From positions 3,255 to 67,254 of the forward strand of contig JBBTRK010000006.1 of NCBI GenBank assembly GCA_038065235.1: a stretch of 64,000 nt of DNA, in the 5' to 3' direction. The DNA comes from Patescibacteria group bacterium (GTDB taxonomy: Bacteria > Patescibacteriota > Patescibacteriia > PEXW01). Shown one piece after another: positions 6,791 through 61,045 of the stretch; within the stretch, counting starts at the first letter, position 1, and each line of letters begins with the position of its first letter. Position numbers and translations under genes: made by a program. The notes beneath the pieces were generated by a model that had not been told where the DNA came from, ran no database searches, and was given only the letters and a program-made list of their open reading frames with translations.

Positions 6791-6801
6791 GCTCCAACTT
6801 T

Positions 6802-6897
6802 GTCATTCTGAGTCCCGCAGTAGCGGGACGAAGAATCTTGCCGGACTTTCCGGGTAGCAAGATCCTTCCCCCTCGATGGGCTCGGGGTCAGGATGAA
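6802..6897. repeat. Structured palindromic intergenic repeat, subfamily 1 copy A (GTCATTCTGAG...GAAGAATCTTGC...GCAAGATCC...TCAGGATGA); contains GTCCCGCAGTAGCGGGAC hairpin
   Basis: Seen directly: nested inverted repeats; same architecture at about 23567, 29017, 34012. Confidence 0.7.
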
Positions 6898-6913
6898 AAA
6901 TAAGAATGCACGC

Positions 6914-10176: not shown

Positions 10177-11175
10177 ATGGCTACCAACCCATTTGCGAAG
10201 GAAGCGGCGCGCGTTGCACGAGCAACGGGTTTTCGGCTCGGCGCGCTCCTCTACACCGCGCGGCACTATGGCCGGCAGTACCGGAACGCGATCTACCAGG
10301 GCACGTTCCGTGGCAAGCCCGCGGTGCTGAAGCTGTACGACGAGCCGCAGCCGACTGACGAGCCGCGGGCACTCGCGGCTTTTAATCGGTCGAAACGTAG
10401 TACTATCCTCCACGCGCCCAAGCTGTACGCGTCGGGCATCGTGTCACCCACGCGTGGTTGGTTGATTATGGAGCGCCTGGCAGATCAAGGTCATTTTTTA
10501 CACTCGCCACTCTCCCCTGCTGATCGAGAAGAATTCCTACGCGTGTTCATGGCGTACCGCCAGAGCTTTCCCACGAAGCCGCACCGGCCGCTGACGCTGC
10601 TGGAGCAGCTCCCAGCACACGAGTACCACACCGTTCGGATTAGCCGGTGGCTGCAGCTCGCGGTGGATACGGAGATTGCTAGGCCGTTGCGGCAGCAGGC
10701 ACTCTCCGGTAAGACGTTTGCCCCACTGTACGAGGCGGCCCTCGTGCTCTTGCGAAAGGAATTTAAAAATCGAAGAATGCTCTGGTGCCACGGCCATGTG
10801 AAGCCGAAGGAGATTTTCCAGTGCGCAGATGGCTCGTACGCCCTGACGGACTTCGCGCACACGCGCATGTACCCCGAAGGCTACGAGCTCGCGTTCATCA
10901 TCTGGGCAGACTGGATGCTGCCTGGCAACTGGCGGCTAGCGTACAGCCAGTGGAAAAAACCCATTCGCGAGTGGCTAGCGCTCATCCGCCCCCTGGCCGT
11001 GAAGCTTAGGTACAAACGTGTCGACGCACTTCTGCATGCAAGTTTGGTCGAACGTACGCTTGGTACCATCCTCGCGGATGTTGAGTCACTTGACCTCTCG
11101 TACGCCGAACGGCGGGGACGGCTGAAGCACTTGTTTCGATTGTTGCGAGAATTGCTCGATGGTCAAACATTGTAA
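10177..11175 (+). CDS. Protein-kinase-like fold phosphotransferase (APH/choline-kinase-like), specificity unknown
   Basis: 332 aa; catalytic-loop-like HGHVKPKEIF and DFG-like ALTDFAHTRMYP; starts 4 nt after rdgB stop. Confidence 0.45.
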   Translation: MATNPFAKEAARVARATGFRLGALLYTARHYGRQYRNAIYQGTFRGKPAVLKLYDEPQPTDEPRALAAFNRSKRSTILHAPKLYASGIVSPTRGWLIMERLADQGHFLHSPLSPADREEFLRVFMAYRQSFPTKPHRPLTLLEQLPAHEYHTVRISRWLQLAVDTEIARPLRQQALSGKTFAPLYEAALVLLRKEFKNRRMLWCHGHVKPKEIFQCADGSYALTDFAHTRMYPEGYELAFIIWADWMLPGNWRLAYSQWKKPIREWLALIRPLAVKLRYKRVDALLHASLVERTLGTILADVESLDLSYAERRGRLKHLFRLLRELLDGQTL

Positions 11176-13084: not shown

Positions 13085-13401
13085 CTCGACGCGTCCCGCT
13101 ACGCGGGACTTGCTCGTGGTCTTCGACCAGCTATTGAGTAGCGCAAAGAATGTTAAGTTGCGATGCGTCGAGTGTCCCGAGCGCTTGTCGAGGGACAACC
13201 ACGCGAAGCCTCGCTTAACCCCACGACCGCGTGCTCGTCCCGCAGATATGGGACTGCGCGCCACGCTCGTAGGAACCCCGAATGGAACCGAACGGGTGCG
13301 ACAACCCCAAAATATAGTATGTTGCTTTTTTCCTACAAATGTGTTTTTTTGGTACACTAATACTCTATAGGTATTGTGGGCAATATAAAAACATCCCAGG
13401 T

Positions 13402-23495: not shown

Positions 23496-23566
23496 AGCAA
23501 AAACGGCTAGGGTGAGAGGGTTAGGTTAGCCGAAAAGCTGGAGTCCGTAAAGGGTCACCCTCTCTT

Positions 23567-23655
23567 GTCATTCTGAGGCCGAGCTCACCGAGGCCGAAGA
23601 ATCTTGCTGCCTTATTAAAAGCGCGCAAGATCCTTCGCTGTTGCTCAGGATGACA
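23567..23655. repeat. Structured palindromic intergenic repeat, subfamily 1 copy B
   Basis: GTCATTCTGAGGCCGAGCTCACCGAGGCCGAAGAATCTTGC...GCAAGATCCTTCG...CTCAGGATGACA; reverse-complement orientation of copy D. Confidence 0.7.
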
Positions 23656-23747
23656 AATGAATATACAGCTATCTGTCCCAAACCCCCGGACTGCTAAAAA
23701 GAAGAAGCCCCGCAGTGGTGCAGGGCTTTAAAATGCAAGCAGACTAT

Positions 23748-29016: not shown

Positions 29017-29142
29017 GTCATTCTGACCCCGAGTAATCGAGGGGGAAGAATCTTGCCGCTATTTACCTTGCGCAAGATCCTCCCGCCTGCCTCGTCACTA
29101 CGAGTTCGGCGGGCAGGTCGGCCTGCTGGCCTCAGGATGACA
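29017..29142. repeat. Structured palindromic intergenic repeat, subfamily 1 copy C (longest copy)
   Basis: TGTCATTCTGACCCCGAG...GGGGAAGAATCTTGCCGC...GCGCAAGATCCTCCCGCC...GGCGGGCAGG...CTCAGGATGACA between hppA start and nusA end. Confidence 0.7.
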
Positions 29143-33985: not shown

Positions 33986-34101
33986 GTCAATGCGAGCCCG
34001 CCATATTTTTTGTCATCCTGAGCAACAGCGAAGGATCTTGCACGCTTTTGAAGAGTACGGCAAGATTCTTCGGCCTCGGTGAGCTCGGCCTCAGAATGAC
34101 A
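33986..34101. repeat. Compound repeat: subfamily-2 head fragment (TGTCAATGCGAGCCCG) + complete subfamily-1 copy D (34012-34101)
   Basis: GTCATCCTGAGCAACAGCGAAGGATCTTGC...GCAAGATTCTTCGGCCTCGGTGAGCTCGGCCTCAGAATGACA; reverse complement of copy B with transition (wobble-compatible) differences. Confidence 0.7.
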
Positions 34102-34142
34102 ATTGGAAAACCCAAGCGGCAGTGTAGCTGTGGAAAACTCGG

Positions 34143-34535: not shown

Positions 34536-34612
34536 TTCTTTTGGTGGTTAAGAAGAATTCAGCAATATATATTGTACGGCATGGAGCTGCAGGCGCAAGA
34601 GTTTTCCCCTCT

Positions 34613-34727
34613 GTCATTGCGAGCCCGAATCTTACGAGGGCGCGGCAATCCCGTTTTTTGGTGTGTAGCCACGAGCCCTCGCTCGTGGTTCAGATTAAAG
34701 CCCGCAGCGAGGGCTGCGGGCTACACG
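34613..34727. repeat. Structured intergenic repeat, subfamily 2 copy E (partial: head GTCATTGCGAGCCCG...GCGGCAATCCCG then divergent hairpins)
   Basis: Shares head with copies F, G, H; followed by CCACGAGCCCTCGCTCGTGG and GCCCGCAGCGAGGGCTGCGGGC hairpins. Confidence 0.6.
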
Positions 34728-39860: not shown

Positions 39861-40080
39861 AGTGAATCCTTTCTCGTATGAGCGGTTTTAGTGTATTTGT
39901 TTTTGACTTCGTAGACTAGCGGAAAATATTGGTAATGTCAATGCTTGTCTTCCTGTCTGTCTTCCTGTCGTCCCTGGCAGTTCACTCGGGACCTTGCCGC
40001 AAGATGCCGGATCGGTGTCCGGCATGACAAAGGAAAGGTAATTCGCTTTTTTCCTAGTAGTGTCGTACAATATCCGCGCT

Positions 40081-41028
40081 ATGGCTGTACCTACTTTATC
40101 CAAGCTCCTCACCGAATTTCTGGAGTACTTGGAAATCGAGAAGAACGTCTCCCCGCTCACGGTGAAGAATTACGACTTCTACCTGCGCCGTTTCTTAACG
40201 TGGGGCAAGCTGCAGGACCCCAAGGACATTACCTCGGAGAAAGTTCGGCAGTACCGGCTCTACCTCAACCGTCTGGTCAATCCGCAGAAGGAGCTGCTCA
40301 AAGCGAGCACGCGCAACTACCACCTCATCGCCTTGCGCGCCTTCCTCAAGTATATGGCCAAGCGCGATGTAGTCTCGCTCTCGTCAGAGAAAGTTGAACT
40401 CGCCAAGCAGCAGGATCGGCAGGTGAGCTTCATGGAAGGTTCTGACCTCGAAAGATTCTTAGAGGCGCCGTTGAAAATTGAACAACAAAATATTGTGCAG
40501 ATTCGGGATAAGGCAATTCTGGAGCTCCTTTTCTCCACGGGTCTGCGCGTTTCAGAGTTGGCAGGACTAAAGAAGGATCAGATTAATATGGAGAAAGATG
40601 AATTCACCGTCCGCGGCAAGGGCGGCAAGCTGCGCGTCGTGTTCCTCAGCCATAACGCGCGGCACTGGGTTGCTGAGTACCTGAAGCAGCGCAGCGATGA
40701 CGAGGAGTGGATGTTCTTGCGTCACGACCGCGCCATGAAGCGCTCGGCCGAGAACTTCAAACCCATTACCCCGCGCTCTATCCAGCGCATCGTGCAGTTC
40801 TACGCCAAAGCCGCTGGCATCACCAAGCGCATCACGCCGCACACCTTGCGTCACAGCTATGCCACGGACTTGCTGATGAACGGCGCAGACATCCGCAGTG
40901 TGCAATCCATGCTCGGCCATGCGTCAATTACGACGACGCAAATTTACACGCACGTCACCAACCAGCAGCTGCGGGAAGTGTACAAGGCCTTTCACAATAG
41001 AAGAGGTAAAAAACAAAAGGACGATTGA
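40081..41028 (+). CDS. Tyrosine site-specific recombinase, XerC/XerD-like
   Basis: N-terminal SAM-like domain (MAVPTLSKLLTEFLEYLEIEKNVS), catalytic R...K...HxxR...Y: LSTGLRVSE, TPHTLRHSYATDLL, GHASITTTQIYTHV; tRNA-Arg 35 nt downstream. Track start 40060 (GTG) is an alternative. Confidence 0.8.
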   Translation: MAVPTLSKLLTEFLEYLEIEKNVSPLTVKNYDFYLRRFLTWGKLQDPKDITSEKVRQYRLYLNRLVNPQKELLKASTRNYHLIALRAFLKYMAKRDVVSLSSEKVELAKQQDRQVSFMEGSDLERFLEAPLKIEQQNIVQIRDKAILELLFSTGLRVSELAGLKKDQINMEKDEFTVRGKGGKLRVVFLSHNARHWVAEYLKQRSDDEEWMFLRHDRAMKRSAENFKPITPRSIQRIVQFYAKAAGITKRITPHTLRHSYATDLLMNGADIRSVQSMLGHASITTTQIYTHVTNQQLREVYKAFHNRRGKKQKDD

Positions 41029-41062
41029 CGGTTCAACCTTTTCGTCGTAGCGTTTACAACTT

Positions 41063-41137
41063 GCCCTGGTAGTTCAACGGATAGAACAGTGGACTTCTAA
41101 GCCACGAATGGGGGTTCAATTCCCTCCCAGGGCACCA
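41063..41137 (+). tRNA. tRNA-Arg (anticodon TCT), CCA encoded
   Basis: GCCCTGG/CCAGGGC acceptor, anticodon loop CTTCTAA, T-arm GGGGGTTCAATTCCCTC. Confidence 0.8.
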
Positions 41138-41196
41138 ACAATATTAAGATTATGTCCGACACCGAAATTCTCAACGTCTTGGATGAGTAAGGGAAC

Positions 41197-41676
41197 GTGG
41201 TGCGCACGGTAACGCGTGAAGAGGCCGAACGCGACAACCACACCACGCCCAATGCGCTCATGTTCATTTTCACCCCGAAGGGTGCAGTGTGGGTGCAGAA
41301 GCGCGCGAAGACGAAGAAGCACTTCCCCGGGCTTTGGGATATTTCGGCGTGTGGCGGAATCGTGCACGGTGAGAAGCCGGAAGTGAGCGCACAGCGGGAG
41401 ATGGAAGAGGAGATGGGTTTTACCTGTCCATTGCACTTTGTAGAATTTTTCTTCAACGAGTTCCCTGGTGAGCATGGTTCAATGCACCGACGGATTTCAC
41501 ACTTGTACATTGGCATGAGTGACAAGATTCCTCAGGTGAATGAAGAAGTGGACGAATTCGTGTCTGTGCCTGCTGCAGAACTTGCGCAGAAAATCCAGCA
41601 GCACCCCGAGGAGTACGTACCATCGTTTTTAATGGAATTGGAAAAGGCGCGGGCAGCTTACGCAAAGCTATTCTAA
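41197..41676 (+). CDS. NUDIX hydrolase; the conserved N-terminus (ATG 41152, MSDTEILNVLDE) is separated from the body by an in-frame TAA at about 41188-41190
   Basis: Nudix box GGIVHGEKPEVSAQREMEEEMGF; upstream in-frame peptide MSDTEILNVLDE-stop-GNVVRTVTREEAER matches the usual Nudix N-terminus. Confidence 0.6.
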   Translation: MVRTVTREEAERDNHTTPNALMFIFTPKGAVWVQKRAKTKKHFPGLWDISACGGIVHGEKPEVSAQREMEEEMGFTCPLHFVEFFFNEFPGEHGSMHRRISHLYIGMSDKIPQVNEEVDEFVSVPAAELAQKIQQHPEEYVPSFLMELEKARAAYAKLF

Positions 41677-41693
41677 ATAGTAGGGCGTCAATC

Positions 41694-42269
41694 TTAAAGA
41701 CGTGATTTGTGTTGTGAGTGTGGTACCGTAAGCCACTGGTGGATGTGCGACCAGATGAAACGCACCATGGCCCATATCCACAGACTCGCAACGACGTAAC
41801 CGAAGAGCACGTCGGAGAGCCAGTGCACGCCAAGGACGAGGCGCGAGTAGCCGACGAGAATAATTAAAACAGTGCCGACCAATCCTGGCCACCAGCGTTT
41901 GGGTTTGCGGAAGAGGATAATCAATGACGCCGTGAAGAGCACAATGCCCAGGGCGTGACCACTGGGGAAACTATAGCCGCTCTCGTGAACGAGAACATGT
42001 ACGAGCGCGGCATCTGGGCGCGGCCGGGCAAAAACACCCTTAAGAAATGGCGTGAGGATGTTTCCAGCCGAAATAACGATGAGTTTAGCAGCAAGGTCAC
42101 GGCGTTTGCGGTGGTAGAGCACGACGGTCACGAGCAAGCACATCCCGGCAAGGAACGTGGGCTCGAAGACAAGACTCACGAGGTGCATGAACTGGTTGAG
42201 CCAGTCTGCGCTGGCTTGTTGGATGGCGTGGCTTACTGCAAGATCAAACATGAACGGCATGGAGAACAT
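41694..42269 (-). CDS. PAP2-family membrane phosphatase (phosphatidic acid / undecaprenyl-PP phosphatase-like)
   Basis: KxxxxxxRP (KGVFARPRP), PSGH (SFPSGHA), SRxxxxxHxxxD-like third motif; 5-6 TM. Confidence 0.7.
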   Translation of the reverse strand: MFSMPFMFDLAVSHAIQQASADWLNQFMHLVSLVFEPTFLAGMCLLVTVVLYHRKRRDLAAKLIVISAGNILTPFLKGVFARPRPDAALVHVLVHESGYSFPSGHALGIVLFTASLIILFRKPKRWWPGLVGTVLIILVGYSRLVLGVHWLSDVLFGYVVASLWIWAMVRFIWSHIHQWLTVPHSQHKSRL

Positions 42270-42335
42270 GCAAGTAATGTTAGCACGTTTTAGTAATGCA
42301 ATTTTTAGTCAGCTTGCCATCGTGCAAATCTGAAA

Positions 42336-42434
42336 TGGTGGACCTGCCCGGCAGGGCCGGGTCCGGCTTTGCCGGAAGGGGAATCGGCCTTCGGCCCGGG
42401 GCGCTGCGATTGCTCGCGCCCGTTCGATTCCCCA
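42336..42434. other. GC-rich highly structured element bounded by an 11-bp direct repeat of the tRNA-Ala 3' end (TGGTGGACCTG at 42336 and 42478); not a canonical tRNA
   Basis: Hairpins CCTGCC-CG-GCAGG, CCGGC-TTT-GCCGG, GGCC-TTCG-GCC (UUCG tetraloop), GGGCGC...GCGCCC, long closing stem GGGGAATCG...CGATTCCCC. Confidence 0.25.
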
Positions 42435-42477
42435 ATACAAAAACGATCAGCCACCACTGCGTGATGTCTGCTCGTTT

Positions 42478-42551
42478 TGGTGGACCTGAGGGGAATCGAA
42501 CCCCTATACCCCGGATGCAAACCGGGTGCTCTACCACTAAGCTACAGGCCC
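42478..42551 (-). tRNA. tRNA-Ala (anticodon TGC), CCA encoded
   Basis: GGGCCTGTAGCTTAGTGGTAGAGCACCCGGTTTGCATCCGGGGTATAGGGGTTCGATTCCCCTCAGGTCCACCA. Confidence 0.85.
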
Positions 42552-42559
42552 AAAAAAAT

Positions 42560-42835
42560 TTACAGTGATTCGCTCTCTTCTTCCTGCGGCGTGAGCGTGG
42601 GCTCGTTCGGATTGAATACCTTTTTCAGTCCGCTGCCAAGCCCGCCGCTCATGAGGAGGAAAGAGAGCAAGATGATGAACACGCCAATGAGTTTGTAGAA
42701 GAGGCGGGTGCCACCGTCGGAGCCGAGGTGCGCTTCAGCCCACTCAATGCGACCCATGTTATCCATTAGCCAGTTGGACTTCCAAATGATGACGAAGCCA
42801 ACTGCGATGAGGATGATGCCGACGAGGTACTTCAT
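42560..42835 (-). CDS. Small membrane protein (2 TM), hypothetical
   Basis: 91-aa ORF MKYLVGIILIAVGFVIIW...LIGVFIILLSFLLMSGG. Confidence 0.4.
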   Translation of the reverse strand: MKYLVGIILIAVGFVIIWKSNWLMDNMGRIEWAEAHLGSDGGTRLFYKLIGVFIILLSFLLMSGGLGSGLKKVFNPNEPTLTPQEEESESL

Positions 42836-42994
42836 AGAGAGATTCTAGCATGGGGTCAAGCGAGACTGCCCTGAACCACTCGTCCTTCGGACTCGGGAAC
42901 AGGGCATGAACCACTTCCTATATAGATTACTGATATTCAGGAACTAGCGAGTGATTGTTGGCTCGCCATGAACCCGAACGTAGTGAGTGGTTCA

Positions 42995-43154
42995 TGGTGG
43001 GCAACGTAGGAGTCGAACCTACGACCTTCTCGGTGTAAACCCGCTTCGACTCGCGGAGCTCGCCGACGCGAGGCGAGCGAGACGCTCTGGCCTGGGTGCT
43101 CCCGATGGGTCGCACCCGTCCCGCAGTAGCGGGACCCAGCTGAGCTTCTCATAA
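42995..43154 (-). pseudogene. Disrupted tandem tRNA-Val(TAC)-like copy: intact T-arm/3' end and anticodon arm, but 38-nt and 49-nt insertions (anticodon-stem/loop junction and D-loop) and a non-pairing 5' acceptor strand
   Basis: Aligns to tRNA-Val 16 nt upstream (shares CTACGACCTTCTCGGTGTAAAC, GAGACGCTCT, AGCTGAGC); D-loop insert contains GTCCCGCAGTAGCGGGAC, identical to the hairpin in repeat A. Confidence 0.45.
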
Positions 43155-43161
43155 GACTGCC

Positions 43162-43238
43162 TGGTGGGCGGTGTAGGATTCGAACCTACGACCTTCTCGG
43201 TGTAAACGAGACGCTCTAACCAGCTGAGCTAACCGCCC
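43162..43238 (-). tRNA. tRNA-Val (anticodon TAC), CCA encoded
   Basis: GGGCGGTTAGCTCAGCTGGTTAGAGCGTCTCGTTTACACCGAGAAGGTCGTAGGTTCGAATCCTACACCGCCCACCA. Confidence 0.85.
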
Positions 43239-43330
43239 GTAAGTCTTCTTTTCATAGCATGACTATCGGATAGCGCAAAGTGCGCACATCATTAGTCAAA
43301 CCGCTCGAACGGGCATCTTTCGCATACCCC

Positions 43331-43385
43331 TTGACACCCCTGCTACTGCGTGATACTATGTACTGGTAGTACGTAGTACTACATA
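43331..43385 (+). promoter_or_regulatory. padR promoter (TTGACA-17-TACTAT) followed by palindromic operator-like sites GTACTGGTAGTAC / GTAGTACTAC overlapping the transcription start region
   Basis: Exact -35, 17-nt spacer; two adjacent perfect palindromes immediately downstream, typical of PadR autoregulation. Confidence 0.45.
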
Positions 43386-43403
43386 CCATTCACCCCAACA
43401 CCC

Positions 43404-43721
43404 ATGGAAAATATTACGGAAATGCTCAAAGGCGTGCTCGAAGGCTGCGTACTAGAGACCATTAGCCGCAGCAAAACCTACGGCTACGCCATTGCCTCGG
43501 CCTTGCGCCAGCTCGGCTTCACCGACGTGGTGGAAGGCACGGTCTACACCATCCTGCTGCGGCTCGAAAGCCGCAAGCTGGTGGACATCGAGAAGCAGCC
43601 CTCGGACCTGGGGCCGCCGCGCAAGTTCTACACGCTCAACCCTGCCGGGCGCAAAGAGCTGGCAGGCTTCTGGGCCAAATGGAAGTTCGTCTCCGCTCGC
43701 ATTAACACCTTGAAAGGCTAA
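43404..43721 (+). CDS. PadR-family transcriptional regulator
   Basis: LEGCVLETISRSKTYGYAIASAL...VVEGTVYTILLRLESRKLV winged-HTH PadR signature. Confidence 0.8.
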   Translation: MENITEMLKGVLEGCVLETISRSKTYGYAIASALRQLGFTDVVEGTVYTILLRLESRKLVDIEKQPSDLGPPRKFYTLNPAGRKELAGFWAKWKFVSARINTLKG

Positions 43722-60916: not shown

Positions 60917-60932
60917 GGGGTTCCACTTGATT

Positions 60933-61045
60933 GTCATTGCGAGCCCGAGCCCTGCGAGGGTGCGGCAATCCCGTTTGGACAAAGCGCAGTTCCATTTAAA
61001 CGAGATTGCTTCGTCGTCCGCACCAGTGGGACGTGGCATTGACAG
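60933..61045. repeat. Structured palindromic intergenic repeat, subfamily 2 copy H
   Basis: GTCATTGCGAGCCCGAGCCCTGCGAGGGTGCGGCAATCCCG...CGAGATTGCTTCGTCGTCCGCACCAGTGGGACGTGGCATTGACAG. Confidence 0.7.

Follow-up and report, generated by a model that had tools for sequence, protein, structure and literature searches.

The subject of this study is the tRNA-Val locus in a 64,000-nucleotide (nt) stretch of DNA from a Patescibacteria group bacterium (hereafter the window, which is the whole stretch analysed; an identical contig is present in groundwater assemblies from the Hainich aquifer, and homologues of a neighbouring gene carry the labels Parcubacteria or Patescibacteria). An intact tRNA-Val(UAC) gene (43162..43238, minus strand; acceptor strands GGGCGGT/ACCGCCC) is one of five tRNA genes found in the window with ARAGORN and Rfam, and both programs called it (75.1 bits with the Rfam model RF00005) at the borders read as tRNA-Val(TAC) in a first-pass annotation, which had been made from the letters of the sequence alone. 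It is the working replacement copy. The second Val-like copy that this annotation had placed 16 nt downstream on the same strand was recovered likewise, with its pieces at 43145-42995; it is a dead, non-functional relic, and its function has been taken over by the gene 16 nt upstream. For annotation purposes, the locus counts as one tRNA-Val gene, not two, and holds no intron-bearing tRNA. The loci of relatives used for comparison were numbered from L001 onward (139 loci overall; L060-L139 are 80 metagenomic GIY-YIG loci).

The stretch from the CCA of the intact gene to the start of the relic is a 16-nt leader (GGCAGTCTTATGAGAA; 43146..43161, minus strand, as are all features of the relic), which occupies the slot held by a GIY-YIG open reading frame (ORF) in L015 and L053. 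CCACCA, the leader and GCTCAGCTGG taken together are 84% identical over 32 nt to positions 2078-2109 of L008 (11/16 for the leader alone). The first relic piece (GCTCAGCTGG; 43136..43145) covers tRNA positions 10-19, i.e. the 5' strand of the D-stem and the start of the D-loop, matches tRNA-Val at 10/10 positions and is preceded by no 5' acceptor strand. The D-loop insert that follows forms two separate hairpins in the minimum free energy (MFE) structure, an 18-nt mini-hairpin (GTCCCGCTACTGCGGGAC; 43118-43135; GTCCCGC-TACT-GCGGGAC) and a 24-nt hairpin (GGGTGCGACCCATCGGGAGCACCC; 43094-43117; GGGTGC...GCACCC); it had been described as 49 nt replacing GGTT, an equivalent description that we recast as 47 nt replacing TT. 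The linker AGGCC (43089-43093) opens the second piece (43078..43093), the remainder of which (AGAGCGTCTCG; 43078-43088; 11/11 matches to tRNA-Val) covers positions 21-31 (3' strand of the D-stem, position 26 and 5' strand of the anticodon-stem). The 38-nt insert by the anticodon loop was found as first described (43040..43077, between the 5' strand of the anticodon-stem and the loop) and folds as two small hairpins. Its right end (CGAGTCGAAGCGGG) recurs as the right end of tRNA-Val-associated inserts in other lineages; the motif GAAGCGGG or AAGCGGGCCGGG is present in L008, L018 and L016, and adjoins the old 3' piece in L008 and L018. When homologues of the 38-nt insert and of the second D-loop hairpin were sought elsewhere, only the end motif GAAGCGGG and the general two-hairpin layout recurred. 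The third piece (TTTACAC...GTTGCCCACCA; 42995..43039) runs from the anticodon loop to ACCA and includes the 3' strand of the anticodon-stem, the variable loop, an intact T arm and the acceptor strand GTTGCCC. A repeat finder reported a 46-nt 3' repeat shared by the working gene and the relic at 91% identity, and of the four mismatches between the two 3' halves, three fall in the acceptor strand and the fourth in the T loop. Starting at the CCA of the relic is a further element of about 130 nt (42866..42994, minus strand), apparently pseudoknotted, which we call element X.

Splicing and function of the second copy

The relic was not called by ARAGORN, with the intron mode included, and the Rfam tRNA model RF00005 gave it 16.9 bits against a gathering threshold of 29. 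It forms no 7-bp acceptor stem: TTATGAG cannot pair with GTTGCCC, as the first-pass annotation had noticed. The only alternative acceptor helix (GGCAGU/GUUGCC) has 6 bp with two G-U pairs, is shifted in register by one and leaves a 10-nt linker before the D-stem; in the MFE fold, GGCAG, which directly follows the upstream CCA, pairs with UUGCC. We treated this closing helix as due to chance: it is impossible in L015 and L053, in which an ORF precedes the relic, and its L008 counterpart (GACAAU/AUCGUC) makes only 5/6 pairs and is absent from the L008 fold. Removal of the inserts in silico restored the D and anticodon arms and no acceptor stem; the relic spliced in this way was called only at a lowered threshold, and a canonical call required an invented 5' end (GGGCAAC).

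No bulge-helix-bulge (BHB) motif was found at the insert boundaries with a scripted search (helix, 3-nt bulge, 4-bp helix, 3-nt bulge, helix), and the inserts fold on themselves as self-contained hairpins. Within 42400-43500, Rfam returned nothing beyond tRNA at the gathering score or at E <= 10. Group I introns have about 200 nt or more and a P1-P9 core, and the inserts have 38 and 47 nt, so the remark that they are too short for such introns stands. Other tRNA mimics, including tmRNA and Y-RNA-like molecules, were rejected in the same interval, where the only matches at E <= 10 were sub-threshold ones on true tRNAs. The negative results of the ARAGORN intron mode, the BHB script and Rfam rule out an intron-bearing tRNA. 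The suggestion of a permuted or processed tRNA with unusual maturation did not survive, for there was no BHB motif, no intron match in Rfam and no live acceptor stem after splicing in silico; it is also countered by the relatives, whose relics are truncated to differing extents and always have an intact tRNA-Val of the same anticodon adjacent. No terminator-like site was found between the working tRNA and the relic, and the relic is therefore probably transcribed as part of the 3' trailer of the working tRNA, without a decoding role.

That the relic, alone or with element X, is a functional tRNA-derived RNA (a module for processing or termination of the trailer, a decoy, or a tRNA excised in an unusual way) is unlikely in our judgement, although several features speak for it. 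The fold of the relic is more stable than that of shuffled sequences (z = -3.5); the inserts lie in loops and leave the D-, anticodon- and T-stems pairable; equivalent hairpins differ by compensatory changes (GTCCCGC/GCGGGAC in the window versus GTTCCGCC/GGCGGAAC in L008); the tRNA-derived segments and element X are more conserved than the adjacent gene; and the 6-bp helix GGCAGU/GUUGCC could close the structure, with a partial counterpart in L008. Besides the lack of a BHB motif, of a group I match, of an Rfam family and of an acceptor stem after splicing in silico, the L008 version has mismatched anticodon- and T-stems and folds no better than its shuffles (z = -1.8), different parts are missing from the relics of L006, L015, L016, L024 and L025, the close relatives L004, L005 and L013 have nothing at the site, and a second decoder is unnecessary where an intact tRNA-Val(UAC) is always adjacent.

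Alleles at the locus and its state in relatives

The 3' half of the relic is identical at 45/45 positions to the functional tRNA-Val of another species, L008 (positions 32-77), the allele of which has the acceptor strands GGGCAAC/GTTGCCC and the T loop TTCGACT. The relic differs from its neighbour exactly where the acceptor stem of this L008-type allele co-varies, whereas the working tRNA-Val is identical at 76/77 positions to that of L013. As judged by these comparisons, the relic and the working gene evidently derive from two different tRNA-Val alleles. All tRNA-derived segments of the relic match functional alleles (67/67, with no point substitution), and because these 67 nt are unsubstituted the relic is, on this evidence, a gene broken by insertions and by a clean replacement of its 5' end, not one in slow decay. 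The contigs from the same species (L001 and L003) are identical over the relic, and the one substitution in the 568-nt spacer lies downstream of it, so that they are uninformative on covariation.

The 3' flank of the relic (129 nt after the CCA) matches the sequence behind the only tRNA-Val of L022, an intact gene, at 92% (118/128), whereas the adjacent gene for a 91-aa protein is merely 77% identical between the window and L022; similarly, the 3' flank of the L008 relic is 87% identical to the flank after the intact tRNA-Val of L019. The relic and element X clearly correspond, as far as this flank can tell, to the unit of tRNA-Val and element X that is intact in the sister genome L022, and the unit was either the resident gene or an import from an L022-like donor. 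In either case, a relic whose flank belongs to a unit intact elsewhere disfavours a simple duplication in place. We consider it improbable that a plain tandem duplication of tRNA-Val took place without any cassette, one copy then decaying slowly and a dispersed hairpin landing in it by chance. Such a course would fit two adjacent, co-oriented Val-like genes that share the 46-nt repeat, and a hairpin that comes from a dispersed family. However, the four differences in the 3' half recreate a functional allele, that of L008, including its acceptor strand, as random decay would not; 67/67 unsubstituted positions next to a wholly replaced 5' acceptor strand mark a breakpoint, not drift; relic and flank match the intact L022 unit; and duplication cannot yield the nested 5' and 3' pieces that recur at other tRNAs (see below). 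Of the earlier description as a decaying duplicate colonised by a hairpin repeat, the dead gene and the hairpin from a dispersed family are retained; slow decay is not, and neither is a duplicate of the neighbour, given the match to the L008 allele and the flank shared with L022.

Sequences resembling element X lie just upstream of GIY-YIG ORFs in unrelated metagenomes. With an nhmmer profile, it was found in at least 12 of the 80 GIY-YIG loci, always between the 3' end of a tRNA or tmRNA and the start of the ORF. Its first helix includes the CCA of the tRNA itself and shows compensatory variants (CCAUGAACC/GGUUCAUGG, CCACGAACC/GGUUCGUGG, CCAUGUACC/GGUACAUGG and CCCUGCACC/GGUGCAGGG); the second hairpin shows compensatory changes too. 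Element X matched no Rfam family and is a candidate for a new structured RNA or DNA motif. By analogy with the metagenomic loci, we infer that it ties the locus of the window to nuclease cassettes.

Across ABY1-type Patescibacteria (Kerfeld-, Magasanik-, Uhr-, Falkow- and Veblenbacteria were compared), the order tRNA-Val(UAC), 91-aa membrane protein, tRNA-Ala(UGC) is kept, and the space after tRNA-Val is highly variable. It is a gap of 20-24 nt without a relic in L004, L005 and L013, and holds an unrelated ORF and no relic in L010. Val relics of differing extent are present in L008, L006, L015, L016, L018, L024, L043, L025 and L053. The L008 relic has the leader of the window and the two-hairpin module in the D-loop, and in addition its anticodon loop (after TTTA) and its T loop are interrupted by inserts; L006 has a shortened version of this relic. 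L024 has two tandem 168-nt units, each terminated by the 3' end of the tRNA; in L018, the old gene is split in the D-loop by hairpins and is accompanied by a complete new tRNA-Val; in L043, a complete new tRNA-Val between complementary arms splits the old gene after TTTA of the anticodon loop; and L025 shows several rounds of nesting. In L015, L016 and L053, an ORF of 78-86 aa separates the complete tRNA-Val from a relic beginning in the D arm (and carrying the two-hairpin D-loop insert in L053); this is the layout of the window with the ORF in place of the 16-nt leader. The gene for the 91-aa protein is 98% identical between L015 and L016, and one of the two strains has a relic unit more than the other, a sign of recent activity as far as such a comparison of strains allows. 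The comparison of orthologous loci that had been proposed with the first reading therefore gave a relic polymorphic in presence and absence with an intact tRNA-Val(UAC) always adjacent; such polymorphism at a conserved target, with mosaic flanking alleles, is what a homing cassette would be expected to show.

The segment from tRNA-Val to tRNA-Ala, with the PAP2 gene, is inverted in the window (40060-43403) with respect to L008 and L015, relative to the XerC/D-like recombinase gene and tRNA-Arg, and one end of the inversion falls on, or close to, the 5' side of the two tRNA-Val copies. An old 5' acceptor fragment was sought upstream of the working gene; the 165-nt upstream spacer matched no other locus.

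Nested tRNA genes and GIY-YIG reading frames

A complete tRNA gene together with a relic of the same isoacceptor was found in related ABY1 Patescibacteria for Val, Arg, Ala, Ile, Pro, Asn and Ser. A fragment search of all fetched loci detected nesting at tRNA-Arg(UCU), tRNA-Ala(UGC) and tRNA-Ile(UAU), and in the metagenomic set at Pro, Asn, Ser and Arg(CCG). The anticodon-loop junction is 35|36 in four isoacceptor families (Val TTTA|C, Arg CTTC|T, Ala TTTG|C and Pro CTTTG|), and the other junctions are in the D-loop at about 18-20 (after about G18/G19) and in the T-loop at about 55|56 (after about T55). The arms around a nested gene are complementary, with conserved outer ends (CCCCGCC.../...GGCGGGG) and inner parts that co-vary, and GC hairpins abut the junctions (for example, TCCCGC-loop-GCGGGA, TCCGCC-AGCT-GGCGGA and CCCCGCC-TT-GGCGGGG). 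At the level of sequence, the Val locus is clearly a hotspot at which tRNA genes have repeatedly been broken at loop tips and replaced. Two nests at tRNA-Arg(UCU) may be described here: in L022 (1333-1549), the old 5' half (equal to positions 1-35 of the tRNA-Arg of the window) comes first, then a complete new tRNA-Arg enclosed by complementary arms, and then the old 3' half with a T-loop hairpin insert; in L008 (1153-1595), the old pieces are separated from the new gene by a GIY-YIG ORF.

A remnant of attL/attR, left by a tyrosine-integrase element that entered tRNA-Val and was later deleted almost wholly, is very improbable as the origin of the relic. Partial tRNA genes commonly stem from the integration of elements, and their fragments can be mis-annotated as genes (PMC9897764); the 46-nt repeat from the anticodon loop to CCA is of typical att size, and a tyrosine recombinase gene is located 2 kb away (40060-41028). 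The best NCBIfam matches of this recombinase are XerC/XerD, however, and it occupies the same place by GDPD and tRNA-Arg in L008 and L015; it therefore looks like a housekeeping enzyme, which makes an integrase origin unlikely. No phage-type integrase was accordingly accepted nearby. Like att duplications, the present locus pairs a complete tRNA gene with a dead fragment of that tRNA and differs from one relative to another. An att site would comprise a 3' fragment only, with an element and a phage-type integrase between the copies, whereas the relic keeps D-arm pieces and is separated from the complete gene by a spacer of 16 nt in which no integrase-type element lies. In the relatives, 5' fragments precede the new gene, which can be nested in the old one, GC hairpins stand at the junctions, and the loop-tip junctions (about 18-20, 35|36 and about 55|56) are the same across isoacceptors, unlike the crossover sites of integrases.

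Small Slx1-like GIY-YIG ORFs (78-90 aa) sit between the complete gene and the relic at several loci, and in L008 (Arg) and L027 (Ile) an old 5' fragment comes first, followed by hairpins, the ORF and the complete tRNA. The ORFs of L015, L008, L053 and L027 matched PF01541 (E = 1e-14 to 1e-16) over 68-71 of their 78-86 residues, which makes them stand-alone GIY-YIG domains without auxiliary domains, of the Slx1-like/UPF0213 kind; the nearest solved structures were 1zg2 and 1ywl (UPF0213), followed by SLX1. Among the 80 metagenomic homologues, 21 have a tRNA gene within 300 nt, in all 21 cases co-oriented with the ORF, and nine of these loci also hold fragments of that tRNA. From general tRNA gene density one would expect a tRNA within 300 nt in a few per cent of cases, a figure that is our own estimate rather than a computed control. 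In L060, the ORF begins exactly after nt 35 of the old tRNA-Pro piece; in L097, it follows a tmRNA gene; and in L108, one tRNA-Asn is flanked by two GIY-YIG ORFs. The prokaryotic Slx1-like group consists of minimal stand-alone domains of unknown role, belongs to a family of mostly vertically inherited repair-type nucleases, and offers as its only hint of RNA metabolism a fusion to a TrmH-like tRNA (G18) methyltransferase (PMC1564403). The ORFs of the relatives agree with this group in their PF01541 match and in their best structures; they differ in residing inside broken tRNA genes, which is described neither in PMC1564403 nor in the full-text literature searched. Nor did that literature yield any account of bacterial tRNA genes that are nested in one another or lie next to GIY-YIG genes.

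The explanation that we favour as a whole, with confidence somewhat better than even, is a displaced, dead tRNA-Val(UAC) relic that bears the footprint of a tRNA-targeting nuclease cassette. The mechanism behind such a degenerate footprint is one that we infer by analogy with the better-preserved loci. Small mobile cassettes would have tRNA genes as their targets and would either carry a replacement copy with them or restore one, so that the cell would survive the hit. The best-preserved ones encode the 78-90 aa Slx1-like GIY-YIG protein, putatively a nuclease of the structure-specific type, which would cut the hairpin tips that tRNA genes may form in DNA. If the cut were mended from a template that bears a cassette, the cassette would be copied into the site and adjacent tRNA sequence converted along with it, which could produce the mosaic of alleles at the locus of the window. 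There, the nuclease ORF would have been lost, with the leader, the hairpins, element X and the relic left behind. A redundant relic would keep its target sites and take further hits harmlessly, and for that reason could gather further inserts. The cassette would also account for the pristine tRNA-derived segments (as homology arms or by recent arrival) and for the difference between L015 and L016. A broader proposal, which we put forward tentatively and hold at a little under even, is that these loci represent an undescribed family of miniature cassettes, with a bare Slx1-like GIY-YIG domain, in ABY1 Patescibacteria and in other bacteria of the metagenomes; its members would disrupt tRNA genes at the tips of three loops (D, anticodon at 35|36, and T), survive by means of a spare tRNA, leave nested relics capped by GC hairpins and travel with the pseudoknot-like element X that pairs to CCA, and the Val and Ala relics of the window would be its degenerate footprints.

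Several observations weigh against the cassette explanation. No GIY-YIG ORF was found in the 64-kb window with tblastn, so that the link to a nuclease consists of analogy and element X, and to our knowledge no cleavage activity or target has been reported for such minimal GIY-YIG proteins. L022 has tRNA-Val and element X without a relic or a nuclease ORF, and element X may reside at tRNA 3' ends independently of any cassette; its conservation (92%, against 77% for the adjacent gene) fits recent horizontal spread, selection on homology arms or a cellular function. Relic and hairpin units too surpass nearby coding DNA in conservation, and the same three readings would fit the conserved segments of the Val relic (no substitution in 67 nt) and the conservation of the hairpins of the Ala relic across four lineages (about 93-95%). 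The anticodon-side insert of the relic in the window is at 31|32, not at the usual 35|36, and the left boundary of the event has been lost through the inversion from Val to Ala relative to L008. A weak point is also that the source of the GC hairpins is not accounted for by a cassette.

The relic itself is an ordinary object, a tRNA gene relic at a hotspot of mobile elements; the mode of its making appears to be undescribed in the literature searched. Free-standing GIY-YIG homing endonucleases are known, for example the Seg proteins of phage T4, of which SegB lies in the T4 tRNA gene cluster. The likeness to them consists in a small GIY-YIG gene by or inside a conserved target, in presence/absence polymorphism and in mosaic flanks such as result from co-conversion. 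The putative cassettes differ in that they disrupt the target and supply a spare copy, instead of lying between genes or in a self-splicing intron, and in that their proteins are bare catalytic domains of 78-90 aa without a DNA-binding domain, the kin of Slx1/UPF0213 and not of I-TevI/Seg (PMC1564403). Archaeal tRNA genes, as described in PMC3218864, have interruptions in the D-, anticodon- and T-loops by inserts that look mobile, and the multi-intron, split and permuted tRNAs of archaea are to that extent like the present loci. In archaea, a splicing endonuclease excises introns that have BHB motifs at their borders, and the cell has no copy of that tRNA other than the spliced product, whereas here no BHB motif is present and a complete gene always is; the anticodon junction here is 35|36, not 37|38, and the pieces are variably truncated. 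In these small genomes, in which most tRNA genes are single-copy, tRNA genes have undergone repeated breakage and in-situ replacement, and the structural positions of the breaks do not depend on the isoacceptor. If the minimal GIY-YIG proteins are responsible, this would give a role to the widespread UPF0213/prokaryotic Slx1-like family of unknown function; if the proposal holds, the spare copy would be a third route, beside the intron and the intein, for a selfish nuclease gene into an essential gene, and the mosaic tRNA alleles and the clutter of GC hairpins around tRNA genes of the Candidate Phyla Radiation (CPR) would be explained.

Hairpins, dispersed repeats and other relics in the window

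The 18-mer of the D-loop insert occurs exactly at 6812 as well as at 43118, as had been noticed in the first reading (0.07 matches are expected even if three mismatches are allowed), and the hairpin family TCCCGC-N2-8-GCGGGA has three copies in the window versus 0.06 expected. It was found in 13 of the 139 loci (nine distinct), with one copy each, and those with checked coordinates adjoin tRNA genes or relics. The Val relics of L008 and L053 and the Ala relic of L004 carry the two-hairpin module as well, at an unchanged position in the D-loop. REP/BIME sequences are similar in that TCCCGC-loop-GCGGGA, too, is palindromic, short and rich in GC and recurs at several places between genes; the mini-hairpin differs from them in being far shorter (15-18 nt) and in lying mostly by or inside tRNA genes or inside other structured repeats, and no RAYT-type transposase was noticed, although no search aimed at one was made. 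Two families of intergenic repeats were found in the window (6795-6900, 23565-23657, 34009-34102 and 29038-29090; also 34612-34656 and 60932-60976), the first with the form TTGTCATTCTGAG-[variable hairpin]-GAAGAATCTTGC-[hairpin]-GCAAGATCCTTC-...-TCAGGATGACAA and the second with the form TGTCATTGCGAGCC...GCGGCAATCC. In the copy at 6812, the slot of the variable hairpin is filled by the 18-mer of the Val relic, and a member of the first family follows the Val relic in L015 and L016.

A 3' relic of tRNA-Ala(UGC) (42336-42433, minus strand) lies downstream of the intact tRNA-Ala, with two GC hairpins in its T-loop and two more before CAGGTCCACCA, and within it the T arm recurs in inverted orientation (GGGGAATCGAAC), opposite CGATTCCCC. 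The same Ala relic with the two T-loop hairpins is present in L006, L012 and L022; by eye, and not by formal scoring, its hairpins are about 93-95% identical over a stretch of about 44 nt in the window, L022 and L006. The third copy of the mini-hairpin (GTCCCGCTACGCGGGAC; 13093-13109, plus strand) is located 9 nt after tRNA-Gly and opens the 3' trailer of tRNA-Gly(UCC) (13085-13285). A 33-nt stretch (11138-11170, plus strand), 1.9 kb upstream of tRNA-Gly and at the end of an ORF, is 79% identical to the 5' flank (7 nt) and the first 26 nt of tRNA-Gly, and may be either a chance match or an old 5' fragment. The trailer of tRNA-Gly also contains an element of about 80 nt (13205-13285, plus strand) that is nearly identical to the flank after the L008 Val relic, so that the tRNA to which this structured element is joined differs between species.

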